This document shows positions 492 to 30,182 of a stretch of DNA of 41,011 nucleotides, piece by piece. The notes beneath the pieces are model-generated. The model did not search any database. It was not told the origin of the DNA and saw only the letters and a list, made by a program, of their open reading frames with translations. Within the stretch, counting starts at the first letter, position 1, and every line of letters starts with the position of its first letter. The position numbers and the translations under genes were made by a program. Source of the DNA: Enterococcus phage fHoEfa03; the sequence record PV296018.1, one strand, 5' to 3'.

Positions 492-1001
492 ATGATTGAA
501 GAATGGAAAGATATTGAAGGATATGAAGGTTTATACCAGGTTAGTAATTTAGGACGGGTTAAACGGTCAAAAGGTAAGTATATGAAATCAGAAAGAATAT
601 TGATGCTATTTATAAATACACCTGGATATCTACAGGTGATGCTGTGTAAAAACAACAAATGTAAAAAATTTACAGTCCACAGATTAGTAGCAAACGCATT
701 CATACCAAACCCAGAAAACAAACCACAGGTAAACCATATTGACGAAGATAAAACAAACAACAAGGTTTCCAATCTTGAATGGGTAACAGCTAAAGAGAAT
801 GTAAATCACGGAACACGTAATGAACGGAGTTCAAAGAAAATCAAAGCTATTGATATAGCAAATGGAGAGTGGAATGACTATAAGTCAATAAGTGAATGTG
901 CGAGAGAGTTAGGACTCCACCAGTCAAGTATATCAATGTGCTTAAAAGGTAAACGTAAAACATCTGGTGGATACACCTTTAAATATAAGGAGGTGGACTA
1001 A
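492..1001 (+). CDS. Free-standing HNH homing endonuclease (NUMOD4-like N-terminus, HNH_3 core, C-terminal helix-turn-helix-like module).
   Basis: N-terminal EEWKDIEGYEGLYQVSNLGRVKR motif. Core HRLVANAFIPNPENKPQVNHIDEDKTNNKVSNLEWVTAKEN. One of five paralogous copies in the window. Confidence 0.8.
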   Translation: MIEEWKDIEGYEGLYQVSNLGRVKRSKGKYMKSERILMLFINTPGYLQVMLCKNNKCKKFTVHRLVANAFIPNPENKPQVNHIDEDKTNNKVSNLEWVTAKENVNHGTRNERSSKKIKAIDIANGEWNDYKSISECARELGLHQSSISMCLKGKRKTSGGYTFKYKEVD

Positions 1002-1475
1002 ATGGCAAGACCACGAAAATTAATCAACGCAACAAACAAACACTATACTGAAGAAGAACGTATTCAAAAACAAAAAGAAGAGGAAAAGTTATATAACTAT
1101 GAACCTTTAGACTTCTCATATTTTCCAATGGGATTGTTACGAGGTGCTTATGCAGAATGGGAACGAATTGGTAACTTCGTAGGAGATTTACCGCTTAGTG
1201 AGTTAGATTCACAGACCCTGGTTTCTTACTGTAACTACGTTTACTTATATAGTAAACTAGCTGAAGAGGTATCTATTGAGGGTGAAGTGACATCAGATGG
1301 CAAGCTAAACCCCAAAGTAACCGCAATGATGGGTTATAGTAAGCAAATCAAAAGCGCAACTAATGACTTAGGTTTAACTATCAATTCAAGATTGAAACTG
1401 GTAGCACCAAAAGAAGTAGAGGACGAAAGCAAAGACCCACTAGGTCAATTGCTTAAAATGCGTACACAAGCATAA
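1002..1475 (+). CDS. terS: Terminase small subunit (P27-family-like).
   Basis: ~157 aa. Sits immediately upstream of the large terminase and downstream of an HNH gene, the typical HNH-terS-terL arrangement of cos phages. Good RBS (GGAGGTGGACTAAATG). Confidence 0.65.
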   Translation: MARPRKLINATNKHYTEEERIQKQKEEEKLYNYEPLDFSYFPMGLLRGAYAEWERIGNFVGDLPLSELDSQTLVSYCNYVYLYSKLAEEVSIEGEVTSDGKLNPKVTAMMGYSKQIKSATNDLGLTINSRLKLVAPKEVEDESKDPLGQLLKMRTQA

Positions 1476-1482
1476 GATTTTG

Positions 1483-1491
1483 TGTTATAAT
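1483..1491 (+). promoter_or_regulatory. Extended -10 promoter TGtTATAAT (TTTTGTGTTATAAT) immediately after terS.
   Basis: Perfect TGnTATAAT. An identical tttgtgttataat occurs at 14279-14291. Confidence 0.45.
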
Positions 1492-1557
1492 GTATTTATG
1501 TAAAAGATATTCTATATTATTTGTATAGTATAATAATAGCGGGTATTATTATACAGG

Positions 1558-1640
1558 CGCAACTACTCCAATAGTTGCGGACATGTTAGCTAAAGTGTTG
1601 TTATACAGAAGGTCCGCTAACTGTATAACAACACTTTAGC
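1558..1640 (+). other. Structured non-coding segment: an 8-bp hairpin at 1558-1579 plus a perfect 20-bp stem (gctaaagtgttgttatacag / ctgtataacaacactttagc) with a 12-nt loop at 1589-1640.
   Basis: Exact reverse complements read directly from the sequence. No ORF spans this region. Confidence 0.6.
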
Positions 1641-1670
1641 ATTAAAGAATGGTTGCTGTGCGACCAATTG

Positions 1671-1725
1671 ACTTAGGTAAGTTTGTTATCCCCTTTGGAT
1701 AAACTCATGACCTAAGTCTTTTTAT
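1671..1725 (+). terminator. Intrinsic terminator or attenuator: nested hairpin acttaggt...acctaagt followed by CTTTTTATTT.
   Basis: 8-bp outer stem at 1671-1678/1710-1717, inner stem ttatcc/ggataa, T-run at 1718-1726. Confidence 0.5.
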
Positions 1726-1728
1726 TTG

Positions 1729-1737
1729 TGCTATAAT
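1729..1737 (+). promoter_or_regulatory. Extended -10 promoter TGcTATAAT just upstream of the terL RBS.
   Basis: tttgtgctataataatgataaggaggtaatacatATG. Confidence 0.45.
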
Positions 1738-1758
1738 AATGATAAGGAGGTAATACAT

Positions 1759-3483
1759 ATGAATAAGATTGATTATGTACAAGACTATATAGACTACGTA
1801 AAAGAAAATCAAATACCAATAGGTAATAAAATCAAACAAGCTATTAGACGACATGAAAAAGATTTAGAGAAGTCAAAAGACCAAGACTATCCATATTACT
1901 ATGACCCTAAAGAAGCATTAGAACCAGTGGTTTTTATTGAAATGCTACCAGACCCAAAGACACGCAAAACAAATAAGCTAGCTAAGTTCCAGAAGTTTAT
2001 TATTGCAATGATATATGGGTGGCGCAAAAAGAAAAACGGAATGCGCAGATTCAGAAAAGTATATATCAGTTTAGCACGTAAGAACGGAAAATCTATTCTG
2101 GTTGCTGGTATCTCACTATACGAGTTTCTATTAGGTCAATATCCACAGGCAAGCCGTCAGATAGTCGCCGCCGCCAACACCAAAGACCAAGCAGGTATTG
2201 TATTCAACATGTTAAAATCACAGCTAAAGGCATTGCGTGCAGTAAGTGATGGAACAAGGAAAGTAACCAAAGTTAATAAGAAAGACATTGAACACTTAGA
2301 AGATGAATCAACGGTTAAGCCACTATCAAGTGATGCAGATAGCTTAGACGGACTAGACGTGCTATGTGGTGTACTTGATGAGTATGGAGAAGCTAAAAGC
2401 ACAGCCATGATTGAGGTATTAGAAAGTTCACAGTCACAACAATTACAAGGTTTAATTTTGATTATTAGTACAACAACCAAAAACTTGAATGGACCAATGC
2501 ACAGCATAGAATACCCATTTATAACTAAGCTACTTAATGAGGAAGTGGAAGCTGATGCTTACCTTGCATTGTGTTGGGAAATGGATAGCCTAAGTGAAGT
2601 AGATGATGAAGCTAACTGGATTAAGAGCAACCCATTATTTGAGAATGCACAGTTACATGAAACAATGTACGAACATAAGGTTAACTCATTAGCAGAGTAT
2701 AAGGCTAAGGGTGACATGAGTGGTTGGCTAACTAAAGAGATGAACTTCTGGGTACAATCATCACAAGACAGTTTCATTGATAAAGAATCTTGGGAAGCTG
2801 TTAAACAAACACAACCGTATGACATAAAAGGTAGACCAGTTTATATAGGGCTGGATTTGGCACGTACAGGCGATATGACGGCTGTTAGTTGGGTGATACC
2901 TATTGCAGAGGAACGCAAGCTACTTCTTGACAGTCACGCTTTTATAGCCTCTGTGGGCGGTATTGAAGCTAAACAGATAAAAGATAAGATACCGTATAGA
3001 CAGTATGAGAACTTAGGACTAGTAAACATCAGTCAGCGACCAGATGGTTTGATAGACCATGAAGATATGTGCGAATGGATAAGAGAGTTCATAACAGAGT
3101 ATGACTTAGACCTACAAGGTATTTACTATGACGGACACCAAGCAACACCATCTGTAATCAACTTAAGCAAGGACTTTCCAGACAAACTAATTGAAGTACC
3201 ACAGCGCATCCAGTATTTAAATGCACCTACAAAGTACTTACGTGATGCAATTATCAAGGGTGAAGTGATTCAAACAGATAACCCACTACTAACTAGAGCG
3301 GTATATAATGCTATTATGCGTGAGTTTGCGGACAATATAGCTATTGAAAAGGCTATGAATCGTAACAAAATTGACCCTATAGATGCCTTAATTAATGCAA
3401 TGAGTGAAGCAATGTACTTTGATTATGAGTATATTAGCTTTAAAGAACTGATTGAAGAAGGTAAATTTGGATTTGGTGTATAA
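1759..3483 (+). CDS. terL: Terminase large subunit.
   Basis: ~575 aa. Position, size, and ATPase plus nuclease-type architecture fit terL. The likely true start is the ATG at 1759 (MNKIDYV) behind RBS TAAGGAGG; the ORF-track start at 1726 is probably too far upstream. Confidence 0.85.
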   Translation: MNKIDYVQDYIDYVKENQIPIGNKIKQAIRRHEKDLEKSKDQDYPYYYDPKEALEPVVFIEMLPDPKTRKTNKLAKFQKFIIAMIYGWRKKKNGMRRFRKVYISLARKNGKSILVAGISLYEFLLGQYPQASRQIVAAANTKDQAGIVFNMLKSQLKALRAVSDGTRKVTKVNKKDIEHLEDESTVKPLSSDADSLDGLDVLCGVLDEYGEAKSTAMIEVLESSQSQQLQGLILIISTTTKNLNGPMHSIEYPFITKLLNEEVEADAYLALCWEMDSLSEVDDEANWIKSNPLFENAQLHETMYEHKVNSLAEYKAKGDMSGWLTKEMNFWVQSSQDSFIDKESWEAVKQTQPYDIKGRPVYIGLDLARTGDMTAVSWVIPIAEERKLLLDSHAFIASVGGIEAKQIKDKIPYRQYENLGLVNISQRPDGLIDHEDMCEWIREFITEYDLDLQGIYYDGHQATPSVINLSKDFPDKLIEVPQRIQYLNAPTKYLRDAIIKGEVIQTDNPLLTRAVYNAIMREFADNIAIEKAMNRNKIDPIDALINAMSEAMYFDYEYISFKELIEEGKFGFGV

Positions 3484-3485
3484 AG

Positions 3486-3512
3486 AGTGCTTTAACTAGC
3501 ACTCTTTTTTCT
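3486..3512 (+). terminator. Intrinsic terminator after terL.
   Basis: agagtgct-ttaa-ctagcactct stem followed by TTTTTTCT. Confidence 0.6.
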
Positions 3513-3513
3513 A

Positions 3514-3717
3514 TTGTTTTGTGGTAAAATGGGGTATATAGGAGGGGTAAATATGCAAAATCCGGTATTGTTAGTAGTAATTTTCTACGTTTTAGGTATG
3601 CTATCACTAGTCACAGCAATGTTTTTCACTGGTTTAGTAGCTGGTTTAGTAGCCTTAGCAGTAGCATTATTAATTCCATCAGTAATCTTATACAAAGAAT
3701 TGGGAGAAGGTGAATAA
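3514..3717 (+). CDS. Small membrane protein (67 aa, two predicted TM helices).
   Basis: Hydrophobic segments LLVVIFYVLGMLSLVTAMFF and LVAGLVALAVALLIPSVIL. GGAGG RBS. Confidence 0.5.
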   Translation: MFCGKMGYIGGVNMQNPVLLVVIFYVLGMLSLVTAMFFTGLVAGLVALAVALLIPSVILYKELGEGE

Positions 3718-3721
3718 TTAA

Positions 3722-4873
3722 ATGGGAGTTTTTGTCGCACCTAGAAGCACAACAAAGCAGAACTTCATTGACTTTATCGAAAGCAGTGACATTTATTCAA
3801 CAGAAATCACAGGTGAAAAGGCATTACGTAATTCAGACATTTTCACAGGTATCAACATTATTAGTGGTGACTTAGGACAGTCAAAATTTAGACCAACTAA
3901 GAATAGTGAAGCTGATGAACAATTTCTAAAAATGATTAACAAACGACCAAACAATAAACAAAGTCATTACATGTTCATGTACGCAACAGTAGCAAACTTG
4001 ATTCTAAGCGGTAACTCATATGCATTAATCCACAGAGATAAATTAGGAGTAGTTGAGAGCTTGGAGTTTGTAAAACCTGAACAAGTAAATGTAATCCAAA
4101 ACGTTACAACAGGCGAATGGTCGTATGATGTAACAATGGAGTATGGTAGCATTATGTACAAATGTACACCAGAAGATATTTTGCACTTTAGAATTACAAC
4201 TGTAGATGGTTTCCTTGGTAGAAGTCCTTTACTATCATTGAAAGATGAAGTAGCTATGCAATCAAACGGTAGTAAGATTTTAAGCAAGTTCTTTGCCAAC
4301 GGTGTATTTGGTGGAGGTATCTTGAAACTAAAAGGCGGTTACGTTGATAACGAAACAAAAGCAAAAATCAGACAGGACTTTGAAAAGGCAAACGGTGGTA
4401 GCACTAACAGTAATGGTGTTATTGTCTTAGACGAATCAACAGAATTCCAAGAATACAAAATGAATACTGATATTCTTAAACTGATTCAAGGTAACAAGTT
4501 TAGTACACAACAGATTGCAAAAGTATTAGGTATTCCATTGAACCGCTTTGGTATGGAATTAGTAAACTCTACAGATAGTGGTGCAAATGACATCTATATT
4601 GCTTCAACTATTAGCCAATATGAAAGAGCTATCTGTGATGAAATTGAAATTAAAACAGGTAACGAGTTAGAATTAGACCTCACAACATTATTAAATGATA
4701 CCTATGAAGATAGACGTAAACGAGTTTTTGAAGGCAAACAGAATAAAGAGTTGCTAAAAGCAATTAAGACTAACGAAATTCGTGACTATTTAGGTTATGC
4801 AGATGTTGAAGAAGGTGAAGAATTAATGAAAGTAGATGAAAAAGAAGGAGTGTCAGCAAGTGAAGAATCTTGA
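3722..4873 (+). CDS. Portal protein (HK97-family-like).
   Basis: 383 aa. Lies between terL and the prohead protease in the conserved morphogenesis gene order. Confidence 0.8.
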   Translation: MGVFVAPRSTTKQNFIDFIESSDIYSTEITGEKALRNSDIFTGINIISGDLGQSKFRPTKNSEADEQFLKMINKRPNNKQSHYMFMYATVANLILSGNSYALIHRDKLGVVESLEFVKPEQVNVIQNVTTGEWSYDVTMEYGSIMYKCTPEDILHFRITTVDGFLGRSPLLSLKDEVAMQSNGSKILSKFFANGVFGGGILKLKGGYVDNETKAKIRQDFEKANGGSTNSNGVIVLDESTEFQEYKMNTDILKLIQGNKFSTQQIAKVLGIPLNRFGMELVNSTDSGANDIYIASTISQYERAICDEIEIKTGNELELDLTTLLNDTYEDRRKRVFEGKQNKELLKAIKTNEIRDYLGYADVEEGEELMKVDEKEGVSASEES

Positions 4874-5423
4874 AATTAGACAACTACAACAGGTTGAAAC
4901 AGTAACAGACAATATTGTTGAAGGCTACGCTTTAAAGTTTGATTCACCTAGTGAAAACTTAGGTGGATTCATTGAGTTCATAGATAAGCGTGCATTAGAT
5001 GGTGTTGATATGAGTGACGTTCGTATGTTCGTTGACCATGATTCAAGTAAGTTATTAGGACGGACAAAGAGTGGAACATTAACATTAGAGGTTGACGACA
5101 TTGGGTTAAAATTTAGAGCATTACTTCCTGATACATCAGTAGGACGTGATGCAATGGAACTAGTTAAACGCGGTGACCTTAGTCAGTGTTCGTTTGGATT
5201 CACAGTTGCTAAAGATGAATGGCGCAAAGCTGATGGAATAAATCACAGAACTATCAAACAAATCAAGTCACTATTTGAAATCTCACTGGTTTCAATTCCA
5301 GCATATGCAGACACAGATGTTAGTGTGGCTAAACGTTCATTAGAACAAATGGAAGAGGAAGCAAAACAATTTCAAAAGCGTAAACTAGAATTAGAATTAA
5401 ACCTATTAGGGTTATACAAGTAA
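4836..5423 (+). CDS. Prohead maturation protease (HK97 / S78-family-like).
   Basis: ~190 aa gene between portal and capsid. The real start may be the GTG at 4860 behind an AAGGAG RBS. Confidence 0.7.
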   Translation: MKKKECQQVKNLEIRQLQQVETVTDNIVEGYALKFDSPSENLGGFIEFIDKRALDGVDMSDVRMFVDHDSSKLLGRTKSGTLTLEVDDIGLKFRALLPDTSVGRDAMELVKRGDLSQCSFGFTVAKDEWRKADGINHRTIKQIKSLFEISLVSIPAYADTDVSVAKRSLEQMEEEAKQFQKRKLELELNLLGLYK

Positions 5424-5474
5424 CACCCACAAGTTCCCTTGTTCGTGATATACTATCTTTAGTAAGAAAAATAA
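5423..5474 (+). promoter_or_regulatory. Late promoter: box ACACCCACAA, 13 nt, extended -10 TGaTATACT, conserved leader ATCTTTAGTAAGAAAAATAA.
   Basis: The same architecture is found at 8484-8535, 9232-9283 and in modified form at 18861-18892. Confidence 0.55.
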
Positions 5475-5492
5475 TATTAAAGGGGTGTGCGT

Positions 5493-6740
5493 ATGTCACG
5501 GCAAGAACTTATGGAACAAGCACAAACTTTATTATCAGAAGGTAAACTTGATGAAGCTGAAAAAGTAATGCAACAAATTAAAGCTTTAGATGAGGAAAAA
5601 CCTAAAGAAGAAGAACGTGCAGTTGATAATAAAGAAGAGGAGAAACCAGAGGAAGAACCTAAAGCAGAAGATGCTAAGGACGAACCAAAGGAAGAACCTA
5701 AAGAAGATAAGGAAGAAACAAAAGAAGAACGTTCAGCAAAAACTGAACAAGATTTTGAAGAACCTAAAGAGGAACCAAAGGAAGAACCTAAAACAGAAAA
5801 ACGCTCACTAGAGCAAAAAGGAGAAGAAAATATGGAGAAAGTTATTTTAGATGGAAAAGAAGTAGAAAATAAAGAAGTGCGTGGATTCTTAGAATACTTA
5901 CGCTCAAAAGAAACACGTGCATTGCCTGAATCATTTGAAGGTGTTAAGTCTGCGGATGCATCAGCAATTATCCCAGAAGAAATCATCACAAAAGCTAAAA
6001 TGTTACCTGAAACAGTTGTTGACTTACGTAATATGGTTACACGTCAAAAAGTAACAAATGCTATGGGTAAATATCCAATCTTGAAAGCTAATGAAGCCGT
6101 GTTGGCATCAGTTGAAGAACTTAAAAAGAACCCTGATTTAGAAGGACCAGCTTTCGAAGAAGTCAAATATGAAGTTGAAACTTACCGTGGTCAAATTGCA
6201 GTAGCAGAAGAAGCTTTACAAGATTCTGATGATGACTTATCTGGAATCATTGCACGTCACATTCAACGTCAAGGTTTGAACACAGCTAACAAAGCTATCG
6301 TTACTAAATTAAAAACAGCAACAGCAGTAGCAGCAACATCAATTGATGACTTGAAAACACAAGTTAACACTGGTTTTGACCCAGCTTACAACTTAGAGTT
6401 TATTGTTTCTCAATCATTCTTTAACGCTTTAGACCAAATGAAAGACGCTAACGGTCGTTACTTACTAGAAGATGACATCAAAGCACCATCTGGTAAATCT
6501 CTATTAGGACGTAAAGTAACTGTTTTAGCTGATAAATTAATTGGTACAGTAGACGGTGACAAAGTAGCATTCTTAGGACAACCTGATGCATTCGCAGTCT
6601 TCTTCGACCGCGTAGACACAACTGTACGTTGGGTTGAGCATCAATACTTCGGTCAAGTATTAGCAGTAGCTATGCGCTTTGACTGTGAAGTCGTTGATAA
6701 AAACGCTGGTAAATATATCACTTTAACACCAGCACCCTAG
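5493..6740 (+). CDS. Major capsid protein (HK97 fold) with an N-terminal scaffold-like acidic EPKE-repeat 'delta' domain.
   Basis: Low-complexity N-terminus (EEPKEEPKE repeats) followed by a ~300-aa capsid domain. Sits in the capsid position. The ATG at 5493 has RBS AAAGGGGTG. The gene ends CCC-TAG. Confidence 0.85.
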   Translation: MSRQELMEQAQTLLSEGKLDEAEKVMQQIKALDEEKPKEEERAVDNKEEEKPEEEPKAEDAKDEPKEEPKEDKEETKEERSAKTEQDFEEPKEEPKEEPKTEKRSLEQKGEENMEKVILDGKEVENKEVRGFLEYLRSKETRALPESFEGVKSADASAIIPEEIITKAKMLPETVVDLRNMVTRQKVTNAMGKYPILKANEAVLASVEELKKNPDLEGPAFEEVKYEVETYRGQIAVAEEALQDSDDDLSGIIARHIQRQGLNTANKAIVTKLKTATAVAATSIDDLKTQVNTGFDPAYNLEFIVSQSFFNALDQMKDANGRYLLEDDIKAPSGKSLLGRKVTVLADKLIGTVDGDKVAFLGQPDAFAVFFDRVDTTVRWVEHQYFGQVLAVAMRFDCEVVDKNAGKYITLTPAP

Positions 6741-6804
6741 TACGCCACCTGTGGTAGGACAGGTGACACCAGCTGAAACATCAGCAACAATTGAATTATC
6801 GTAA
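6735..6804 (+). other. Conserved 3' element with a candidate +1 recoding site CCC_UAG plus hairpins (cacctg/caggtg and gctga/tcagc). The +1 frame encodes STPPVVGQVTPAETSATIELS and stops at 6802-6804.
   Basis: 63 nt match 9119-9181, downstream of the major tail gene, at 62 of 63 positions. Confidence 0.5.
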
Positions 6805-6808
6805 ACAC

Positions 6809-8479: not shown

Positions 8480-8483
8480 GTGA

Positions 8484-8535
8484 CACCCTAAAACACGTTG
8501 ATTAATGATATAATTATTCTAGTAAGAAAATATAA
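8484..8535 (+). promoter_or_regulatory. Late promoter copy: ACACCCTAAA box, TGaTATAAT, leader TATTCTAGTAAGAAAATATAA.
   Basis: Aligns with 5423-5474 and 9232-9283. Confidence 0.5.
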
Positions 8536-8557: not shown

Positions 8558-9124
8558 ATGGCAGTAGTAGGTTTTAAGAAAGCTATTATCAGCGTACCTA
8601 AAGCAGAAGGTTCTGGCGTTGATAAATACACAATTGATAAAAGCGGTGGCGGTACTATTGAAGCGTCAATTCAAGGAATTTCAGCAGAACAAACAACCGT
8701 TTATGCGTCAAACGTTCCAATTTGGGTATCAGCTAAAGGGGTTGGAGAGTTAACAGCTTCATTAAACGTATTTGACTTGTATAAAGACAACGTTTATGAG
8801 AAAATTTTAGGTATTGAACGTGGTGAAGATGGTATTGCAATCGTTGGCGAAGATACAGAAGCACCTTACGTTTCAGCAGTATTTGTTGCAGACGGTGCAG
8901 ACGGTAAAGAAATGTACTTTGGTTTAGTTAAAGGACGTTTCAGCCACCCAGAAATCGCATTGAATACAACAGAATCTGGTGGTACAGAACCAAACACAGA
9001 AACAATTGAAGGTTCATTTGTAACAGATTCACGTGGCTTCGCATACATGAGTGCTGTTTCAAGCGAAACATTAACACTTGATAAGTTTGTTGACAAAGTA
9101 AACAATATTAATCCATTGCCCTAG
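8558..9124 (+). CDS. Major tail protein.
   Basis: 188 aa. Sits directly before the G / G-T chaperone and tape measure genes. The gene ends CCC-TAG. Confidence 0.8.
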   Translation: MAVVGFKKAIISVPKAEGSGVDKYTIDKSGGGTIEASIQGISAEQTTVYASNVPIWVSAKGVGELTASLNVFDLYKDNVYEKILGIERGEDGIAIVGEDTEAPYVSAVFVADGADGKEMYFGLVKGRFSHPEIALNTTESGGTEPNTETIEGSFVTDSRGFAYMSAVSSETLTLDKFVDKVNNINPLP

Positions 9125-9188
9125 TACGCCACCTGTGGTAGGACCGGTGACACCAGCTGAAACATCAGCAACAATTGAATTGACTTAG
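9119..9188 (+). other. Second copy of the conserved 3' recoding-like element (CCC_UAG plus hairpins). The +1 frame encodes STPPVVGPVTPAETSATIELT and stops at 9186-9188.
   Basis: Near-identical to 6735-6797, with one A/C difference. Confidence 0.5.
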
Positions 9189-9214: not shown

Positions 9215-9231
9215 TTACACTGGTTTCACCA

Positions 9232-9283
9232 ACACCCACAACCACTAGTGTTTATGCTATAATATCTTTAGTAAGAAAAATAA
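9232..9283 (+). promoter_or_regulatory. Late promoter copy: ACACCCACAA box, TGcTATAAT, leader ATCTTTAGTAAGAAAAATAA.
   Basis: Aligns with 5423-5474. Confidence 0.55.
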
Positions 9284-9303
9284 CTTTATTGGAGGAATCA
9301 ATT

Positions 9304-18765: not shown

Positions 18766-18770
18766 TATAA

Positions 18771-18798
18771 AACACCTCTTTTCAGGGGTGTTTTTATT
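18771..18798 (+). terminator. Intrinsic terminator after tal.
   Basis: aacacctcttttcaggggtgttttt. Confidence 0.6.
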
Positions 18799-18860
18799 TG
18801 CTTTTAAATGGATAATCACCCACATTGGCGACTGAAAAACGCTTAGAATGCTCCTATGAA
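18785..18860. repeat. 76-nt direct repeat copy A (terminator tail, TTTATTTGCTTTTAAATGGATAATCACC, then CGCTTAGAATGCTCCTATGAA) upstream of the lysis cassette.
   Basis: ~80% identical to 20558-20633 downstream of the endolysin. Confidence 0.6.
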
Positions 18861-18892
18861 GCACACCATTTCCCCTATTTAAGTGATATACT
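18861..18892 (+). promoter_or_regulatory. Late promoter variant (GCACACCATTT box, then TGATATACTATAAT) in front of the lysis genes.
   Basis: Aligns with the capsid promoter acacccacaagttcccttgttcgTGATATACTAT. Confidence 0.45.
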
Positions 18893-20540: not shown

Positions 20541-20573
20541 AAAAAGACACCCTATATGGGGTGTCTTTATTTG
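20541..20573. terminator. Bidirectional-looking intrinsic terminator between the late and early operons (agacaccc-tatatg-gggtgtct, A-run before, T-run after).
   Basis: Perfect 8-bp stem. Located at the convergence of the + late and - early transcription units. Confidence 0.65.
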
Positions 20574-20633
20574 CGTTTTAATGTATAATCACCTTACTTT
20601 GAATCTGAAACGCGCTTAGAATGCTCCTATGAA
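20558..20633. repeat. 76-nt direct repeat copy B (terminator tail, TTTATTTGCGTTTTAATGTATAATCACC, then CGCTTAGAATGCTCCTATGAA). Overlaps the 3' end of the nrdH-like gene.
   Basis: See copy A at 18785-18860. Confidence 0.6.
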
Positions 20634-20854
20634 ACAATGGTTTCTAAGATATTTGGAGCATATCCGCCAATTACAACAGGTTCATCATCTTTGAAAACCA
20701 CTGGTAAGGAACGCAATCCGCATTTCATTAGATATTCTAGTGCTGCTAAATCTTCATCTACATTAATTTCTTTATAGTTAACTCCTAACTGTTGTAGTTT
20801 ACGTTTTGTAAAACTACAAGATGCACAATTGTTTTTAGTATACACTGTAATCAT
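20627..20854 (-). CDS. NrdH-like glutaredoxin.
   Basis: 75 aa with a CxxC motif (YTKNNCASCSFTKRKL) in a thioredoxin-fold context. Confidence 0.6.
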   Translation of the reverse strand: MITVYTKNNCASCSFTKRKLQQLGVNYKEINVDEDLAALEYLMKCGLRSLPVVFKDDEPVVIGGYAPNILETIVS

Positions 20855-20865: not shown

Positions 20866-21396
20866 CTATTTATATTTAAATGAATATCCTTTATGTGTTT
20901 TTTGTTTACCAGCTAAACATAAGGATATTGATGATACTGACAACTCAAGCTCGTTAGCGCATTCTGTCATTGATTTAAATTCATAAGTCTTTTTATTTGA
21001 TATACAAAATATACCTATATTACGGTTACCCTGATTTGAATACTGCTCTTTATAGGTAGCCCACCTTAAGTTTTCAACTCTGTTATCAAATCTATCCCTG
21101 TTTATATGGTCTACTGTAGGTTTGTTTTCTGGGTTTGGTATGAATGCTTCTGCTACTAAGCGGTGTAAATATTCAATACGCTTTACATTGTTATATAATG
21201 TTATTTTCTTGTAACCATTTGCTACCTTACCGCTTAGTTCTTTTAACTTTAATAACTGTCCTTTCCTATTTAACCTAGGTAAGGAAAAAACCCTACCTAG
21301 GGATGTTATTACATAGTTACCATTAATAACATATTCTTCGTTAGTCAATGTAATTTTTGACATTAAGTTTTCTATATCCAAGTTTTTCTCTTTCAT
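20866..21396 (-). CDS. Free-standing HNH homing endonuclease (paralog of 492-1001 and 29649-30182).
   Basis: HRLVAEAFIPNPENKPTVDHINRDRFDNRVENLRWATYKEQ core. The longest ORF (to 21435) overlaps the polymerase 3' end, so the true start is probably the internal Met (21396 or 21363). Confidence 0.75.
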   Translation of the reverse strand: MKEKNLDIENLMSKITLTNEEYVINGNYVITSLGRVFSLPRLNRKGQLLKLKELSGKVANGYKKITLYNNVKRIEYLHRLVAEAFIPNPENKPTVDHINRDRFDNRVENLRWATYKEQYSNQGNRNIGIFCISNKKTYEFKSMTECANELELSVSSISLCLAGKQKTHKGYSFKYK

Positions 21397-23632
21397 GATG
21401 TGCTTGTTCAACCCTTTCTTTGTAGTTTTCACCAAACCAAAGGACTAACGTGTCTTCTACCTGGTCAATATAGTATTGTTTGTCAATTTCATCAATGGTA
21501 ATACCTTCACCAATTGCTTCATTACTGATTGTGTAGTATTCTGGAGCGTTTGCCAATCCTTTTGTATATGAAATATTATCCTTAAATTCATCAGCTTCAA
21601 TATCTAATAATTGACCTTCTTTGACCTTAAACAATTCTACTGCATTAGTTTTGTCTTTTACTGCGAATACGCGGTTAACCTTTTGAGCATTGGTTTCATT
21701 ACCTTCAATGTCCCTTTTAATTGTTTTATCATAACTCCAGCCAGTTTTGGTAATAATTTGAAACTGTCTTACATCTTCACATTCTTCAATAAATTCTTTG
21801 TAGTCTTTACCAGCCACCAAATAGTTGATAAATGCATTTGAAACAACTGCTTTTGAAACTTTTAATCCACCAGTTAAACCAATAGCACCTTTAATTTTAA
21901 CCTTCCCATTTGGTTGTACTGCAATGTAGTTATTTACATCTTTTTGCCAAATTTCACGGAACATATCCTTATCTAATGTTAGCCCAATCTTGTTAGCAAA
22001 TTCATCTAATGCTTCATCAATAGCTTTATCATCTGCTTCACTGTTTGGAATATATGCGTGTGCGTCCGTATTTGATTGAATGAATTGTGCTTTACCTTTA
22101 ATTAATTCAAACATGTTTGTCATAATCAACTGACCTGTTGCACAAACCAAGAATTGGTTTCTTGGGTCATATAAACCATTAAACTGCGCACCACTGGCAC
22201 CAAACTTAGTGTTAAGCGGTAACTTGATACCGTTAATCATTACCCAAGTTGGTACCTTTACGCCTTTAATATCTGCTGTTTCTTCACCTGAATACTTAGC
22301 ATCCATGCGTTGTTTAAGTAAGTCACTATAGCGGTGAAGTTTATCTTTTGGAATGTTTCTTGATAGTAGGTTGAACTGAACCATTGTATTTGGATATAGT
22401 GAACCCCAGTCACGCATTGGGAATAATCCAATATGAATATAGCTAGGTACCGCACCGTGTACACCACCACTACCATAGACCATTTCATAACCATCTTCAG
22501 TAGTGTAGTTTAGTGACACGTTTAGTTTGCCTTTTTCGTTTAATTCAAATTCATGATTGAGATATGCGTCTGCAATCTCTTTTGTATTAATGTTTAATCG
22601 TTTATCTAACTCTAATGGGTCTGTCAAGTCTGGTCTAACTTCTTGTTTTGTTGCACCAAGTAACTTAGCTGTTAAGTTAGCATTGGTTTGTAATAAGTCT
22701 GTCTTATCCATGTCAAACATTAAAGCAATAGTTGCTTTAGCTAACAACATACTTATGTTTTGTTCAAAACGTTTTTCAGTTGCTAATACATCATTTTTAC
22801 AGTATGCAATGTTTTTCGCTTTTTCTTCCTCTGTCAATGGTCTATCCATATCAAAGTCTACTTCTGTTTCTTTAATGTTGATGCCTAAGAATGCTGAATG
22901 TTCTTTTAAGCTAAAACCTTTGTTATCTTGATATAGGTCCATACCAAAAAGTGGTGTTTTATGACTATCAAACATTTTGTAAACTAGACCTCTATTATCT
23001 GATTCAATAATTGCCTTAGACATCTGATAAGCATTTTTGCCTTGTAGATACCCACGCATTACATTGTTGTCATATGACGCATTATTATACCCAATAAACA
23101 TTGAATCACGGTATTCAAGGTAAAACTTGCGTAATTCGTCAAGGTTGTTATTAATGATAAACCATTCTTTGGTAAAGTAATCACGAAATACAAATAAACT
23201 GTCATGTTTAAAAATCTCAATATCAAATAATAAAATGGTTTGCTTTGTTAATGGTTCACTTGGTTTAAATGGTACAACATTACCACTTGAAATACTTCTG
23301 ATTGGTTTTACTGTAGCAAAACCATTACTGAACTTCAAATCAATCAATAAACGGTCACCAACTTCAACATTTTTCCATTTATCCCAGTCATATTTGCGAA
23401 ACTTCATGATATAGCTTGTAACGTCCCTACCATCTTCTAATGAACGCATTTTAACTACCTTCATTTCTTTTCCTTTTGCTGATAACTTTTTGGTAGATTC
23501 AATGACAACCACATCATGTTGACCAGCTCGCATAGGGTCAAGACTTCGTGAATTACCTTTTAGCTTACTGAATACTTCCAATAGTTTTTCAGCTAGTTTT
23601 GGTGCTTCTTTAAATTCTGCAATATTTTTCAT
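21341..23632 (-). CDS. Family B DNA polymerase.
   Basis: Exo I LLFDIEIF (DxE). Exo III-like YCKNDV. Motif A DWGSLYPNTM (DxxSLYPS). Motif B-like KFGASGAQFNGLY. Motif C-like SNTDAH. Confidence 0.8.
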   Translation of the reverse strand: MKNIAEFKEAPKLAEKLLEVFSKLKGNSRSLDPMRAGQHDVVVIESTKKLSAKGKEMKVVKMRSLEDGRDVTSYIMKFRKYDWDKWKNVEVGDRLLIDLKFSNGFATVKPIRSISSGNVVPFKPSEPLTKQTILLFDIEIFKHDSLFVFRDYFTKEWFIINNNLDELRKFYLEYRDSMFIGYNNASYDNNVMRGYLQGKNAYQMSKAIIESDNRGLVYKMFDSHKTPLFGMDLYQDNKGFSLKEHSAFLGINIKETEVDFDMDRPLTEEEKAKNIAYCKNDVLATEKRFEQNISMLLAKATIALMFDMDKTDLLQTNANLTAKLLGATKQEVRPDLTDPLELDKRLNINTKEIADAYLNHEFELNEKGKLNVSLNYTTEDGYEMVYGSGGVHGAVPSYIHIGLFPMRDWGSLYPNTMVQFNLLSRNIPKDKLHRYSDLLKQRMDAKYSGEETADIKGVKVPTWVMINGIKLPLNTKFGASGAQFNGLYDPRNQFLVCATGQLIMTNMFELIKGKAQFIQSNTDAHAYIPNSEADDKAIDEALDEFANKIGLTLDKDMFREIWQKDVNNYIAVQPNGKVKIKGAIGLTGGLKVSKAVVSNAFINYLVAGKDYKEFIEECEDVRQFQIITKTGWSYDKTIKRDIEGNETNAQKVNRVFAVKDKTNAVELFKVKEGQLLDIEADEFKDNISYTKGLANAPEYYTISNEAIGEGITIDEIDKQYYIDQVEDTLVLWFGENYKERVEQAHHEREKLGYRKLNVKNYID

Positions 23633-24669: not shown

Positions 24670-24746
24670 AATAAAATTCCTCCAATAATTTGTTTTTATT
24701 TTTTACTACTTAAATAGTATAACATACTTTCCCTAACTTGTGTAGG

Positions 24747-26040: not shown

Positions 26041-26112
26041 CTACATTATCATAACCAACTTTAATAATGTAACTATTCATCATGTCAATAATGTTCAGAA
26101 AGTCTGTTTGTG

Positions 26113-26892
26113 TTAGGTTAATTGATTTTTCTGTTTCCATTCTTCTACGTCCTCCATTGTCAATCTGTTTTCATCTTTTTTAGTACGTTTGATTAGTCCT
26201 TCAAAAGTTGAATATGTTTCGCTTTGGTGTAATGGTACCACAATTGAACCTGGTTTGCAATGCTTTTCTGTAAATTCTTTATGTTCAGTTGAAGCTAAGT
26301 GACGATATGAACCGTTACTAAAAATATCAAAGCCAGTATGTGCTTTTGTTGATTCATAAAATTCAATTACTAAAGGATTGTAATTAGATTCTAACAGACA
26401 GTAGTCTACTTGTAAAGAGTTTTTATCTAAATATTCCTGATAATCAATTGTAGTACTTAAATCAGTGGCATATAATAATACCTCTTTTGTTTCTATATCT
26501 TCAATAATAAAGCCATGACAGTCAACTAATTCCTCACCAGCACCATGATAGTTCTGAATAGTTGTGAATTTCATTGTACCAATTTGAAACTGAAAGTTAT
26601 CACTAAAAACAACATCAGCTGGAATTTTTGTTTTTTCAAACATTAGATTACTTACTTCTTCATTAGCTAAAATTTTAATGTTTGGAAAGTTTTCACGAAT
26701 CTTCTTATAAACAGCTGGCTTGAAATGGTCCCCGTGTCTATGGGTAAATATTAAAAAATGTTTTTCATATAGTAATGGCTCTATAAATTTGTAAGGCTTA
26801 CCTGCATCAACTAATATATTAAATTGATTAGTATATATTGATACTGAATTTCCTTTACTACCTGTGTAATGTACGTTCCATTTGAATGTCAT
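26113..26892 (-). CDS. Metallo-beta-lactamase-fold hydrolase.
   Basis: HxHxDH signature (FTHRHGDHF) followed by downstream His/Asp residues. Confidence 0.65.
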   Translation of the reverse strand: MTFKWNVHYTGSKGNSVSIYTNQFNILVDAGKPYKFIEPLLYEKHFLIFTHRHGDHFKPAVYKKIRENFPNIKILANEEVSNLMFEKTKIPADVVFSDNFQFQIGTMKFTTIQNYHGAGEELVDCHGFIIEDIETKEVLLYATDLSTTIDYQEYLDKNSLQVDYCLLESNYNPLVIEFYESTKAHTGFDIFSNGSYRHLASTEHKEFTEKHCKPGSIVVPLHQSETYSTFEGLIKRTKKDENRLTMEDVEEWKQKNQLT

Positions 26893-26902
26893 TTGCTACC
26901 TC

Positions 26903-27382
26903 CTAATATTGAGATGGTGTATTGCGTTCAGACCATGGGTTGCCCTCTAATTCCCATAACTCTTTACCAAGTCGTTTAGCGGTGTCCCACTTATCCTTGT
27001 CAATTGCTTTATTAATTTCAATAATTAATTTATGACGTTTATCCTCTACTTTTTTGCGCAGTGGACGTGCAACACGTTGTTTGCCTTCTTGTGGGTTAAT
27101 AGCCCACCCAAGGTTGTTGCAGTGTGTGTTGTTAACATCACCATCTTTATAATATAGGTAGCCTAGATTGTCTTTATTTAGTACGAATGATTCAGCTACT
27201 AAGTTAGCAATAAAAAACTTACGTGTCTTATTGTGTGAGCCTTCTAAGACTACGTATGGTTTGCCGTTATCCTCATATGAGTTCCAGACCGTTAAACCAG
27301 TGTCACGGTCTATTACATATCCCATGTTTGAAACTGCGTAACGGTCGTAGGGTTCAAACAATGGTTCAAATTTTTCAATCAT
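26903..27382 (-). CDS. HNH-family homing endonuclease, divergent (NUMOD4-like YAVSNMGYV N-terminus).
   Basis: FFIANLVAESFV...NNTHCNNLGWA resembles the HNH_3 core of the other copies but is more divergent. Confidence 0.5.
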   Translation of the reverse strand: MIEKFEPLFEPYDRYAVSNMGYVIDRDTGLTVWNSYEDNGKPYVVLEGSHNKTRKFFIANLVAESFVLNKDNLGYLYYKDGDVNNTHCNNLGWAINPQEGKQRVARPLRKKVEDKRHKLIIEINKAIDKDKWDTAKRLGKELWELEGNPWSERNTPSQY

Positions 27383-27588
27383 TTAAGTTCCTCCATTAGT
27401 TTTTCTAGGTCCTCTTTTCTTACCATTACACAAGGGTCATCATCTGATAAATTGTTCTTATCTCTTATACTAATCAAAGTATCGCCATCTGGGTACATTG
27501 TCAACTCTAAAATATCATTTTTTGAATATGCACAATCAACTGTAATTGTTTTGTAATTACCAATTAATCGTTTGAATACTTGAATCAT
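27379..27588 (-). CDS. Hypothetical protein (69 aa).
   Basis: ORF only. Confidence 0.4.
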   Translation of the reverse strand: MIQVFKRLIGNYKTITVDCAYSKNDILELTMYPDGDTLISIRDKNNLSDDDPCVMVRKEDLEKLMEELK

Positions 27589-27589
27589 A

Positions 27590-28072
27590 TTATAACCCTC
27601 TTTCTATAATCTTGTACAACTCATCCTCAAATATCTTATATACATGTATTCTGTTAGAAAAGAATTTCTTAGCTTTCCCAAAGTGATAGCTAGCATCATG
27701 CATATTATTAAATCTATATACCTTAAAATCTCTTTTATCCAATATGATTAGTGGTCTATGTCTACCAAGAGTTAGGTTATTATCCCAAGCATGTTTACAG
27801 TTTTCTTTAGCTGTAACCCACTCAAGATTGGGAACCCTGTTATTTGATTTATTAGCATCAATATGGTTTACTTGTGGTTTGTTTTCTGGATTTGGAATGA
27901 ATAGTTTAGCTACTATTCTGTGGACTTTTTCTGGGTGTGAGTTTACTGTAACTATGCGATAACCATCTTTATCTAGGTGACCCTTGTGTAATCCTTTTTG
28001 TTTCGTTATAACTAATCCTGATGGTGATACCTTTATATTATCATAGTCTACAAAATTATTGTTTTCTACCAT
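27590..28072 (-). CDS. Free-standing HNH homing endonuclease.
   Basis: HRIVAKLFIPNPENKPQVNHIDANKSNNRVPNLEWVTAKEN core, near-identical to the copy at 492-1001. Confidence 0.75.
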   Translation of the reverse strand: MVENNNFVDYDNIKVSPSGLVITKQKGLHKGHLDKDGYRIVTVNSHPEKVHRIVAKLFIPNPENKPQVNHIDANKSNNRVPNLEWVTAKENCKHAWDNNLTLGRHRPLIILDKRDFKVYRFNNMHDASYHFGKAKKFFSNRIHVYKIFEDELYKIIERGL

Positions 28073-28568
28073 TCTCCCACTCCTCTATCATCCAAGTTAA
28101 ATATGTTTTTGCTTTTTTTAAATCTTCTACTTTATTTTTTTTCTCGTGTCTAGAAATATATTTTTGTAAATTACCAAGCAAAAAGCCATAATATTGCTCT
28201 TCACTCATATTAGCTTTCATGATTTCAATTGGTTGAATTCCGTTGTTTGTGTAATGTTCTTGATTGTCAATTAAGTCTGAGTGTATTTTATGAGCTACTT
28301 TTTCTAAATGTTTTGTAACAACATCATCTGATGGGTTTAAATATTCAATACTTTTTTCTTGTTCAGGTTCAACACCATCACATTTTGAATCTTCAAAAGT
28401 AACTTCTAATTCAGGAATAACAAAATGGTTTTTAAAAGCACTCTCTGTAGTATATGTGTGTGTTCCGTCATGATATTTGACTTTCCACATTTTACCTTCC
28501 ATTTTATGTGCTACACCTGTTAAACCATTATCTTTGCGTTTTACTACCATTCCATCTTGTAATTTCAT
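28056..28568 (-). CDS. Hypothetical protein (170 aa). The C-terminal region is reminiscent of DUF3310-type phage proteins (uncertain).
   Basis: ORF with a GGAGG RBS. The C-terminal YYGFLLGNLQKYISRHEKKNKVEDLKKAKTYL pattern is suggestive only. Confidence 0.45.
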   Translation of the reverse strand: MKLQDGMVVKRKDNGLTGVAHKMEGKMWKVKYHDGTHTYTTESAFKNHFVIPELEVTFEDSKCDGVEPEQEKSIEYLNPSDDVVTKHLEKVAHKIHSDLIDNQEHYTNNGIQPIEIMKANMSEEQYYGFLLGNLQKYISRHEKKNKVEDLKKAKTYLTWMIEEWENGRKQ

Positions 28569-28598
28569 AATTAATTCCTCCTAATGTTTTATAATATC

Positions 28599-28627
28599 AG
28601 TCTATCATATTGACGTTCCTTTGTCAA
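28599..28627 (-). promoter_or_regulatory. Early promoter TTGACA-N17-TAGACT.
   Basis: Reverse complement of tgtcaa at 28622-28627 and agtcta at 28599-28604. Confidence 0.4.
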
Positions 28628-28645
28628 CACAAAACTTTTATTTTA

Positions 28646-28730
28646 TGGTATAATATATTTATAGTTGGTAAAGGTGATTCCTCCCACCTTACACCATCCC
28701 ACCTCACGTTACGGCGTGGGGTTTTTTATT
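28646..28730 (+). ncRNA. Candidate small plus-strand RNA inside the minus-strand early region: extended -10 TGgTATAAT (28646-28654), ~65-nt transcript, intrinsic terminator (cccac...gtggg then TTTTTTATTTT).
   Basis: A perfect TGnTATAAT and a plus-oriented hairpin with T-run sit with no plus-strand ORF. Divergent from the minus-strand promoter at 28599-28627. Confidence 0.3.
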
Positions 28731-28974
28731 TTGCATATTTTGCGATAAGTTGAAAAACTTCTTGCGCCGTTTCAATGTTTTCAAAACTAACAAATCCACT
28801 TGCTACATGTTGCATCATTACTGAATAGTTATAATTTGTACTATACATATCACCAAACCCATTTGGATTGTACTTTACATCAATAAGACAACCGTTTGGG
28901 AACAATTTTCTAAACATATGAGCGTTATTCATCTTTTGCCATTCTCCGTTCTTCTCGTTTTTTAACTGAATCAT
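28726..28974 (-). CDS. Hypothetical protein (82 aa).
   Basis: ORF only. Confidence 0.4.
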   Translation of the reverse strand: MIQLKNEKNGEWQKMNNAHMFRKLFPNGCLIDVKYNPNGFGDMYSTNYNYSVMMQHVASGFVSFENIETAQEVFQLIAKYAK

Positions 28975-29668
28975 ATGTGCGTTTCAGTTCTGTACTGTCA
29001 AGTGGTGGATTACATCCTATCTGGTTAGTATATTGCGCCCACACCCATACTTCTTCATGTTCTAAGCCTGTAGCAAACAATTTGCCAATCATTTGCGTTA
29101 TCCAGTTGTTTCGTCCTCCTTCATCACTTCCAGCGATAATATCACCTAACAGGTTTGCAGTCCATTTGCGTTCACGTTTTTTGTTTTGCTTTTGAATTGT
29201 TTTATCTGTAAAAATATCAAACCATTTCTCTGGTAGGTCTGCAATTGGTGAATTGTCAATCACTTCATATTTTACACCATCAATTGTTGAACCCCACCCT
29301 AAAACATATCTACCACTACACTGAAAGTCAACACCTTCAAGCTCCTTATGGTTTTGAATGAATTGCACATCATTATATTTTTCAGGTAGCTTGTAATACA
29401 TATGAAGTCCACCACTTGGTGTCATAACTGTTTTAGTGTCTGGTAATTCAATATCATACTTTTCGCAAAACTCTTTCAGGTTATCAGCACCACTAATACC
29501 ATTATGAGTGTCAATATCAATCACTACTACCCCATTTAATGAACCAGTTAGGTACCCCCAGTTACCACCTTCTTTTATCCATTCACGAACAACATTTTCA
29601 TTCTCTCCATTAAATGAACCTGCCACTAAAGGTGCTTTACCATTCTTTTTAATTCTCAATACTTTCAA
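28925..29668 (-). CDS. Primase-polymerase (PrimPol, bifunctional DNA primase/polymerase N-terminal-type) domain protein.
   Basis: VVIDIDTHNGISG places the DxD metal-binding motif in the PrimPol context. Confidence 0.55.
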   Translation of the reverse strand: MKVLRIKKNGKAPLVAGSFNGENENVVREWIKEGGNWGYLTGSLNGVVVIDIDTHNGISGADNLKEFCEKYDIELPDTKTVMTPSGGLHMYYKLPEKYNDVQFIQNHKELEGVDFQCSGRYVLGWGSTIDGVKYEVIDNSPIADLPEKWFDIFTDKTIQKQNKKRERKWTANLLGDIIAGSDEGGRNNWITQMIGKLFATGLEHEEVWVWAQYTNQIGCNPPLDSTELKRTYDSVKKREERRMAKDE

Positions 29669-30182
29669 ATTTAAAACCTCCTGCTGATTTGTTTATATAT
29701 TTATCCGAAATCACTTTACTTATTGTTCCTTCATCTATATTTAGTGTGTTACTTGCTTCTCGTATACTACTATAATATACTTCCTTACCTTCTTTGTCAA
29801 TAGATTTTATTTTCTTTTTTAAACCAGTTGCTTTTTTATTAACTTGTTGCTCTGCATATGTTGCCCACCTTAAGTTTTCAACTCTGTTATCAAATCTATC
29901 TCTGTTCACATGGTCTACTGTAGGCTTTTTTTCTGGGTTTGGTATGAATGCTTCTGCTACTAATCGGTGGACTGAATATGTTTTTGTATATCCGTTATTA
30001 TCACTAAGTCTTACACAATTATATTCAAACCCTCTTTTACCTCTTTTTTGATTTTTTAGTATAGTTTCTTTGGTTTCTAATAGACCAGTGTTACATCTAA
30101 CTATTCTTGCTTTTGACTTAATTCTACCAAAGTTTGATATTTTATATTTATTAAGATTATTCAGTTCTCTCCATTCTTCCAT
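29649..30182 (-). CDS. Free-standing HNH homing endonuclease.
   Basis: MEEWRELNNLNKYKISNFGRIKS N-terminus. HRLVAEAFIPNPEKKPTVDHVNRDRFDNRVENLRWATYAEQ core. Confidence 0.8.
   Translation of the reverse strand: MEEWRELNNLNKYKISNFGRIKSKARIVRCNTGLLETKETILKNQKRGKRGFEYNCVRLSDNNGYTKTYSVHRLVAEAFIPNPEKKPTVDHVNRDRFDNRVENLRWATYAEQQVNKKATGLKKKIKSIDKEGKEVYYSSIREASNTLNIDEGTISKVISDKYINKSAGGFKFESIEN

Follow-up and report, generated by a model that had tools for sequence, protein, structure and literature searches.

The window analysed here is the whole 41,011-base-pair (bp) stretch of Enterococcus phage fHoEfa03 (PV296018.1), whose gene order is that of a whole genome and which looks like a complete siphophage of the Efquatrovirus type. 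Its plus strand carries the packaging, head, tail and lysis genes up to about 20.5 kilobases (kb), and its minus strand the replication and early genes. Five open reading frames (ORFs), called here S1 to S5, lie in it next to or near genes of packaging and replication (Table 1); an earlier note had described all five as free-standing homing-endonuclease genes of the HNH type, and all five ORFs are present at the coordinates it gave. Megablast against a phage collection returned about 115 related records, all of them Efquatrovirus-type Enterococcus siphophages (IME-EF4, AL2, AL3, phiSHEF4 and LY0322, for example), the nearest being EF-M80 with 94-98% identity. The whole genomes of ten relatives (labelled L001-L010) were compared locally, making 11 genomes with the window; they align over 80-93% of it at 88-96% identity, and all ten are fully collinear with it, with no rearrangement between HNH copies. 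To survey the occupancy of each locus, the gene with its two flanks was searched against the phage collection and records with the same gene at the same site were counted; linkage of the flanks was followed as identity per bin of 100 nucleotides (nt) in carriers versus non-carriers. The whole genus is a recombination mosaic, in which blocks of 100% identity alternate with blocks of 70-80%.

Table 1. HNH genes and associated features of the window (positions count from its first letter; aa, amino acids)
Feature	Coordinates	Strand	Description
S1	492..1001	+	Intact I-HmuI-like HNH gene, 169 aa, separating the terS start codon from its ribosome-binding site
S1 insertion boundaries	478..993	+	GGAGG at 478-482, repeated at 989-993; insert of about 511 nt
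Type I core, S1 copy	674..799	+	85% identity over 126 nt with 27801-27926
S2	20866..21396	-	Intact I-HmuI-like HNH gene, 176 aa, flanked by the DNA polymerase gene and nrdH
Type II core, S2 copy	21044..21165	-	92% identity over 122 nt with 29848-29969
Overlap of polymerase 3' end and S2 5' end	21341..21396	-	56 nt; HNH-linked polymerase C-terminal allele ...EKLGYRKLNVKNYID (stop)
S3	26903..27382	-	HNH-like core gene, 159 aa; conserved, with a degenerate catalytic site; not mobile
S4-linked haplotype block	27400..28400	-	Small ORF 27379-27588, S4 and the 3' two-thirds of the DUF3310 gene
S4	27590..28072	-	HNH_3 gene, 160 aa, short N-terminus, C-terminal part unlike I-HmuI
Type I core, S4 copy	27801..27926	-	Pairs with the S1 core 674-799
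S5	29649..30182	-	Intact I-HmuI-like HNH gene, 177 aa, upstream of PrimPol
Type II core, S5 copy	29848..29969	-	Pairs with the S2 core 21044-21165
Packaging-type HNH	40511..40894	+	PF01844, next to terS across the genome ends

S1 passes the curated Pfam cut-offs of NUMOD4, HNH_3 and I-HmuI_NUMOD-like (HNH_3, PF13392, 38.9 bits with a cut-off of 24.8) and aligns end to end (expect value, E, 6e-24) with I-HmuI, the HNH_3/NUMOD4 nicking enzyme of Bacillus phage SPO1 (PDB 1U3E), with which it has in common the order of an N-terminal beta-sheet DNA-binding part, the HNH motif and a C-terminal helix-turn-helix. The insert is framed by two copies of GGAGG, the first acting as the ribosome-binding site of S1 and the second, within the last S1 codons, serving terS. 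Of 62 matching records, 14 have the same gene here; IME-EF4 and LY0323 have an empty site, which in the alignment reads ...AATAGGAGG joined directly to TGGACTAAATGG..., and phage vB_EfaS-271 holds an internally deleted remnant of 63 nt (L010 1802-1864). A tblastn search of the window with 23 HNH proteins for remnants beyond the five genes gave one weak match at 270-368 (E 0.003), without Pfam support. It falls in a 57-aa ORF (259-425) that is intact in AL3 (L003 252-425) and that in the window and EF-M80 is split, a run of Ts at about 364-368 being one T longer there; the region weakly matches (tblastn E 0.003) the C-terminal part of the IME-EF4 HNH protein gp28, and may have been left just upstream of S1 as the orphan relic of a DNA-binding module of the HNH kind.

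S2 passes the cut-offs of HNH_3 (45.2 bits, cut-off 24.8) and I-HmuI_NUMOD-like, falls just under that of NUMOD4 (20.8 versus 23.4 bits) and matches 1U3E over chain residues 10-171 (E 1e-9). Its ATG lies inside the polymerase reading frame, and the polymerase, which ends in ...ELQGFKPVEVKNYID in genomes without S2, ends in ...EKLGYRKLNVKNYID in carriers; in LY0322 it agrees with the window up to ...CATCATGAAAGAGAA and continues as the non-carrier allele. This S2-linked variation is clear over the last 17 polymerase codons, and positions 21300-21399 are 100% identical in S2 carriers and 69-80% identical in non-carriers. The gene was found at the same site in three of 107 records, the space between nrdH and the polymerase being otherwise empty or occupied by a different HNH gene, a Mom-like gene or a methylase. 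In LY0323, a genome overall only about 89.7% identical to the window, the S2 segment is 100% identical, and vB_EfaS-271 retains the beginning (~130 nt) of an S2-type gene, fused to nrdH (L010 22152-22284), a remnant that arose by deletion between AAATAGGA direct repeats.

S5 passes the cut-offs of NUMOD4, HNH_3 (42.0 bits, cut-off 24.8) and I-HmuI_NUMOD-like, and stands in place of a 189-nt ORF of the relatives. Its last 20 nt overlap the first six codons of PrimPol, which starts with TTG (MKVLRI) where S5 is present and with ATG (MELLRL) in the empty alleles. Positions 29500-29599 of PrimPol are 85-100% identical in S5 carriers and 61-66% in non-carriers; the gene occupies the site in 11 of 102 records, and the S5 segment is 99-100% identical to that of Ef5.1, again a genome with only about 89.7% overall identity to the window. 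S4 passes the cut-off of HNH_3 alone (42.7 bits, cut-off 24.8), with neither NUMOD4 nor I-HmuI_NUMOD-like, and its match to 1U3E is confined to residues 13-102, the N-terminal and catalytic parts (E 1e-6); judged by this domain content it is a partial member of the I-HmuI-like HNH_3 class. Its insertion point lies within the last ~8 codons of the DUF3310 gene, so placed that the S4 protein ends in ...ERGL, as DUF3310 itself does in the empty alleles, and that DUF3310 gains an insert-derived C-terminus. S4 was found jointly with the neighbouring S3 in six of 104 records; among the ten relatives it is carried by EF-M80, AL3 and EF326P1 and absent from the other seven. The block around it is 99-100% identical in the carriers EF-M80 and AL3 and 63-93% identical or unalignable in the seven relatives without S4, within surrounding DNA of 90-100% identity.

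S1, S2, S4 and S5 are thus sporadic genes with precise empty-site alleles, and three of them (S2, S4 and S5) come with a linked variant end of the neighbouring essential gene. The search of the window with Rfam gave no match at gathering thresholds to a group I or other intron, and none of the polymerase, PrimPol, DUF3310 and terS genes is shortened or interrupted; since no intron family was detected, the four genes are free-standing, as the earlier note held. Its assignment of all five to the NUMOD4/HNH_3 type holds fully for S1 and S5, which have both domains, with NUMOD4 below threshold in S2, HNH_3 alone in S4 and no Pfam match for S3; likewise, the placement of the genes next to key genes stands for the four (terS, the polymerase 3' end, the DUF3310 end and the PrimPol start), S3 being no homing gene. 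The comparison with relatives that the note had suggested yields empty sites for S1, S2, S4 and S5, which are hence not ancient fixed copies, and none for S3. Besides intact and empty sites the relatives contain decayed ones: vB_EfaS-271 has no intact HNH_3 gene and the two deletion remnants at the S1 and S2 sites, and the junction between the VRR-NUC and helicase genes, the commonest HNH site of the genus, is empty in the window (31915-32012) and holds remnants of ~175 nt in EF-M80, AL3 and EF326P1. The remnants at this junction, ~175-285 nt long in several relatives, lie at L001 31886-32065, L003 32846-33025, L007 15760-15939 and L006 8287-8571. In the window, a GTG start would lengthen the helicase ORF upstream by 29 codons, an extension that is probably spurious. 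The relatives jointly display what reads in their sequences as invasion, replacement, decay and loss, as would be expected of homing elements.

As to expression, a sigma-70 scan of the window for promoters of the HNH genes' own found 48 sites, with 47.1 expected in shuffles. The best-scoring promoter-like sites, 30453-30425 (11/12, with an extended -10) and 28627-28599, are both minus-strand and precede the operons containing S5 and S4, respectively. Another promoter-like site on that strand (29800-29772; TTGACA, 17 nt, TATTAT, 11/12) lies in the 3' half of S5 upstream of PrimPol, in a scan that overall did no better than chance.

The catalytic cores are of two types, and the near-identical DNA core that the earlier note saw in all five genes is found in S1, S2 and S5 and less so in S4. 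In the codon alignment, S1 and S4 share a type I core (...PQVNHID..K.NN.V.NLEWV) and S2 and S5 a type II core (...PTVDHINRDRFDNRVENLRWA), with 68-70% identity for cross-pairs between types in the repeat search. The 41-mer TTAGTAGCAGAAGCATTCATACCAAACCCAGAAAACAAACC occurs three times with at most three mismatches (at 684, 21119 and 29923), none being expected from 100 shuffles; the S4 core has seven mismatches to it, and S3 lacks a near-identical core, the peptide AFIPNPENKP ascribed to every gene being SFVLNKDNLG there. The antisense ORFs at 455-772 (-), 27744-27962 (+) and 29794-30051 (+), all containing ...FSGFGMN..., are mirror images of the cores, as had been proposed. Nucleotide identity in the N-terminal, core and C-terminal parts is 47%, 92% and 47% for S2 and S5, and 48%, 84% and 41% for S1 and S4.

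This pattern extends to positions that the protein does not see. At positions with the same amino acid, the number of identical codons was set against the expectation from the codon usage of the window: in the S2-S5 core the codon is identical at 29 of 33 positions versus 15.1 expected (P 6e-7), and outside the core at 19 of 36 versus 16.8. The core excess recurs in S1-S2 (P 0.002), S1-S5 (P 0.003) and S1-S4 (P 0.012), with identical codons at expectation outside (P 0.3-0.85), and the shared core codons include the minority codons TTC (36% usage) and ATA (18%). Synonymous divergence (dS) is 0.26 in the core and 1.29 outside for S2-S5, and 0.52 versus 1.81 for S1-S4. One divergence time is incompatible with both values, so that either the cores were exchanged recently between old lineages or their synonymous sites are under selection. 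That purifying selection on the catalytic motif plus codon bias produced the near-identical cores without any exchange is an account we consider quite unlikely: the core does encode the most constrained part of the protein (amino-acid identity 57-92%, versus 23-46% outside), and an AT-rich genome has a narrower choice of codons, but selection on the protein does not hold synonymous sites, and the identical-codon excess and the low dS are limited to the core and include shared minority codons.

As read from these alignments, the homing genes are mosaics whose cores were exchanged, by gene conversion or recombination, between anciently diverged paralogues. The exchanged stretch of ~120 nt encodes the catalytic beta-beta-alpha-metal motif, the flanking target-recognition parts not being exchanged. 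The 23 HNH genes of the 11 genomes give a reticulate picture, in which the gene at the terS site of AL3 matches S1 at 63%, 91% and 56% in the three parts and the 29-nt centre of the core, with up to three mismatches, turns up in genes at four different sites; the exact 29-nt core was found in one contig only of IMG/VR, and is not a widespread exact element beyond this phage group. The earlier note had also seen the repeated cores as substrates for rearrangement within the genome. A crossover between copies would delete or invert essential regions (between direct copies, it would delete the polymerase), and since such crossovers are damaging and none is seen in the ten collinear relatives, the exchange of the cores, which the data show instead, appears to have been of the non-crossover kind or to have taken place between co-infecting genomes.

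S3, considered by the earlier note a divergent fifth homing gene, has a different history. No Pfam family matches it, and its relatedness to the others comes from phrog_59 (E 9e-17) and from a hidden Markov model (HMM) built from the other four genes (E 1.6e-7). All 11 genomes have it in the same place, none of them showing an empty allele, with an intact frame of 159 aa, and its amino-acid identity of 95-99% at dS up to 0.5 gives a ratio of nonsynonymous to synonymous divergence (dN/dS) of 0.02-0.15, that is, strong purifying selection; its DNA is 76-100% identical per bin, and the neighbouring regions that do not align are the small ORF and the DUF3310 3' region. At the positions of D74, H75 and N96 of I-HmuI, named as catalytic in the Skunavirus study discussed below (PMC12724721), S3 has Tyr, Tyr and Glu. 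A database search gave 22 clusters of homologues, all of 153-160 aa and reaching down to about 55-56% identity, and the 23 aligned sequences of the family (window included) all have YY or YF in place of Asp-His, with 40 invariant columns. In the window S3 lies between DUF3310 and a metallo-beta-lactamase (MBL)-fold hydrolase gene, and this order recurs in two distant contigs with overlapping stop and start codons, and active HNH_3 genes are present elsewhere in the same contigs. A homing endonuclease decaying into a pseudogene on its way to loss might likewise have lost the catalytic Asp-His pair, the C-terminal helix-turn-helix and any Pfam match, but this fate is highly improbable for a gene with an intact frame in 11 of 11 genomes, dN/dS of 0.02-0.15 at dS up to 0.5, invariant columns throughout its family and translational coupling to its neighbours in distant phages. 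By its sequence, S3 is almost certainly a domesticated family member without nuclease activity, DNA binding without cleavage being the most economical guess at its role.

The gene identities, distribution, junctions, linked haplotypes, selection on S3 and mosaic structure, which are observed directly, are together best explained if S1, S2, S4 and S5 are free-standing homing-endonuclease genes of the I-HmuI type, accompanied by a domesticated S3, a separate packaging HNH and mosaic cores, and we consider this joint explanation probable. Each homing gene is seamlessly joined into an operon, overlapping or abutting the end of an essential gene and using or supplying its ribosome-binding site. In a mixed infection the enzyme would nick or cut the HNH-less allele near the insertion point, and recombinational repair from the carrier genome would copy in the HNH gene together with the adjoining variant gene end, which would render the carrier immune; the linked flanks at S2, S4 and S5 are where the target site and its immune variant are expected. 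Copies could be lost later through deletion, and homing followed by deletion would account for the remnants, for the patchy distribution and for the different occupants that one site can have. Cleavage, homing and the part that the variant gene ends play in immunity are inferred from analogy with known enzymes.

Several observations weigh against this explanation or parts of it. The mechanism is argued by analogy, and the mosaicism of the whole genus means that the linked flanks could be products of ordinary recombination and not of nuclease-driven co-conversion; for S1 no linked allele was seen, the adjoining downstream flank being 99% identical in IME-EF4 and LY0323, where the site is empty. 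His75 (I-HmuI numbering) is kept in S1, S2, S4 and S5, but residues 74/75/96 are N-H-N in S1 and S4 (N74 for D74) and D-H-Q in S2 and S5 (Q96 for N96), compared with D-H-N in I-HmuI; these substitutions at 74 and 96 are conservative, and nuclease activity of the four genes is predicted rather than guaranteed. The C-terminal helix-turn-helix of I-HmuI is absent from S4, whose C-terminus is unrelated. The comparison of the cores covers 37 codons per pair. For S3, the AlphaFold2 model made from the 23-sequence alignment has a confidence score (pLDDT) of 66, and below 50 across residues 60-99, the HNH-like region, and the best Foldseek match, to I-HmuI, is weak (E 0.023, template-modelling score, TM, 0.33).

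Some of these points would also fit with the four HNH genes being accessory cargo, moved only by general homologous recombination, whose nucleases are idle as regards their own spread or otherwise employed, for instance in excluding the markers of competitors, attacking satellites or helping replication or packaging. The mosaic is everywhere in the genus, the nrdH-polymerase site also holds the non-nuclease Mom-like and methylase genes and so looks like a general hot spot, no linked flank allele accompanies S1, and, as Barth et al. caution, homing cannot be inferred from sequence alone (PMC10448857). We nevertheless hold this to be unlikely, because three of the four inserts change the very end of an essential gene in linkage with the insert, a given site is occupied by the same gene families again and again in genomes that otherwise diverge, the catalytic His and the full I-HmuI architecture are retained, and marker exclusion has been demonstrated experimentally for related lactococcal enzymes (PMC12724721). 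The null hypothesis of the earlier note itself, under which the lineage has long housed all five as ancient, domesticated copies, describes S3 well (fixed in 11 of 11 genomes, under purifying selection and in conserved synteny), but as an account of all five it has very little probability: the survey of empty sites refutes it for the other four, which no more than 3-14 of 62-107 records contain and whose sites in relatives are cleanly vacant or hold remnants left by deletion.

Beyond the homing explanation, one could imagine that the catalytic core of ~120 nt acts as a portable stretch of homology through which HNH genes swap recognition parts and so reach new specificities, and that the S3 family is a captured and disarmed homing endonuclease, now a sequence-specific DNA-binding protein. 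This two-sided idea is a tentative one, to which we give a modest chance; a captured S3 might regulate or assist the replication module, or shield a target site from the nucleases of co-infecting relatives.

The sixth HNH gene of the window, at the genome ends, belongs elsewhere. It matches PF01844 (E 2.8e-7, 31 bits with a cut-off of 21.4) and phrog_144 (E 9e-33) and is conserved in ten of ten relatives at 89-100% amino-acid identity, in agreement with the earlier note, which had set it apart as packaging-type; from this family assignment it is predicted to be a terminase-associated HNH used in packaging. It resembles the HK97 gp74 type and the "GVE2-like HrdP" of PMC12724721 in being a PF01844 protein encoded next to the terminase genes and invariant in relatives, and differs in position, the Skunavirus gene lying between terL and portal and the present one upstream of terS across the genome ends.

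Compared with I-HmuI itself, which like S2 is associated with a DNA polymerase gene, the genes of the window differ in being free-standing, I-HmuI being encoded within a group I intron. A close parallel is provided by the lactococcal Skunavirus phages, for which Yu et al. (2025) describe 1-8 HNH genes in each of 89 genomes, I-HmuI-like genes at ten of 11 mapped sites, mostly in the replication module and clustering by insertion site, 56 truncated remnants, one invariant packaging HNH and marker exclusion shown by experiment (PMC12724721). Both groups are siphophages with small genomes and Gram-positive hosts, in which I-HmuI-like genes vary in number and position and leave remnants beside an invariant packaging HNH, and they differ in host, phage genus and insertion sites; the accessible part of the report mentions neither a fixed, catalytically degenerate member nor conservation of cores at the nucleotide level between paralogues. 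The free-standing enzymes of T4-like phages (mobE and the Seg family) and of vibriophage ICP1 are also intron-less, sporadic and placed against essential genes, co-convert flanking markers, sit at recombination boundaries and shuffle domains (PMC2790892, PMC2988022, PMC10448857). They differ in being mostly GIY-YIG Seg or T5orf172 enzymes of much larger genomes, and in that homing has been experimentally shown for several of them, where here it is deduced. The location of homing-endonuclease genes near essential genes and at recombination boundaries, their domain shuffling and their domestication have been described by Barth et al. (2023) (PMC10448857). Like S3, which is fixed and under purifying selection, the domesticated relatives of the ICP1/PLE system, among them a satellite regulator derived from an endonuclease, have been kept, as far as PMC10448857 relays the original work (PMID 33823541); S3 differs from what is relayed there in belonging to the HNH_3 lineage and in having lost its catalytic residues and not been retargeted.

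The number of copies is not exceptional either. Homologues of S1 were found by tblastn against all phages in 2,463 records, and in 1-6 places per related enterococcal record among the matches listed (six in phiNASRA1, five in AL2 and DEfc27b, four in several). Among the 11 genomes, intact copies number four in the window, three in each of four relatives, three or four in LY0322, one in each of four relatives and none in phage 271. The load that the earlier note called unusually high for a genome of this size is therefore matched by related records and by the 1-8 genes of Skunavirus genomes of ~30 kb (PMC12724721); the four copies of the window are at the upper end of normal for the genus.

Other repeated elements were noted in the window. 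Four minus-strand intergenic blocks (30403-30459, 34213-34282, 35895-35956 and 37252-37308), the first of them upstream of the operon of S5, have TTGACA-type promoter-like hexamers followed by ribosome-binding sites and are probably a family of early promoters. In the structural module, an intergenic block of 48-58 nt occurs three times (5423-5479, 8483-8530 and 9231-9288; 67-79% identity) and may represent late promoters or processing sites. The capsid gene and the major tail gene are each followed by one copy of a direct repeat of 104 nt (6694-6797 and 9078-9181; 81% identity). The holin-lysin cassette is flanked by a 95-nt repeat (18769-18863 and 20542-20636; 77% identity) that includes a terminator-like hairpin, the one at 20543-20568 being terminator-like when read on either strand. 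A tandem duplication of 263 nt (33687-34212; 88% identity) gives rise to two paralogous genes of 62 aa on the minus strand (33753-33941 and 34016-34204). Between the divergent early and late blocks, the region 39515-39884 contains a perfect 22-nt inverted repeat (39587-39608/39690-39711) and GTAACG-rich repeats, and could be an origin or a region bound by a regulator.

Efquatrovirus phages are in development for therapy against Enterococcus faecalis. The pattern described is ordinary for this phage group and of a kind described in comparable phages, and it leaves the general picture drawn from T4, ICP1 and Skunavirus phages unchanged; what is modestly new is the fixed family of Tyr-Tyr pseudo-nucleases, the evidence from synonymous sites for exchange of catalytic cores between paralogues, and the exact junctions and remnants, which put the target sites within easy reach of a test. 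Seen side by side, the window and its relatives present the whole life cycle of such an element, from the intact copy through replacement, deletion remnant and empty site to the domesticated copy. Much of the difference between isolates in the replication and packaging modules would then be homing-endonuclease traffic and not adaptive variation, and in phage cocktails the HNH genes would bias the inheritance of markers.

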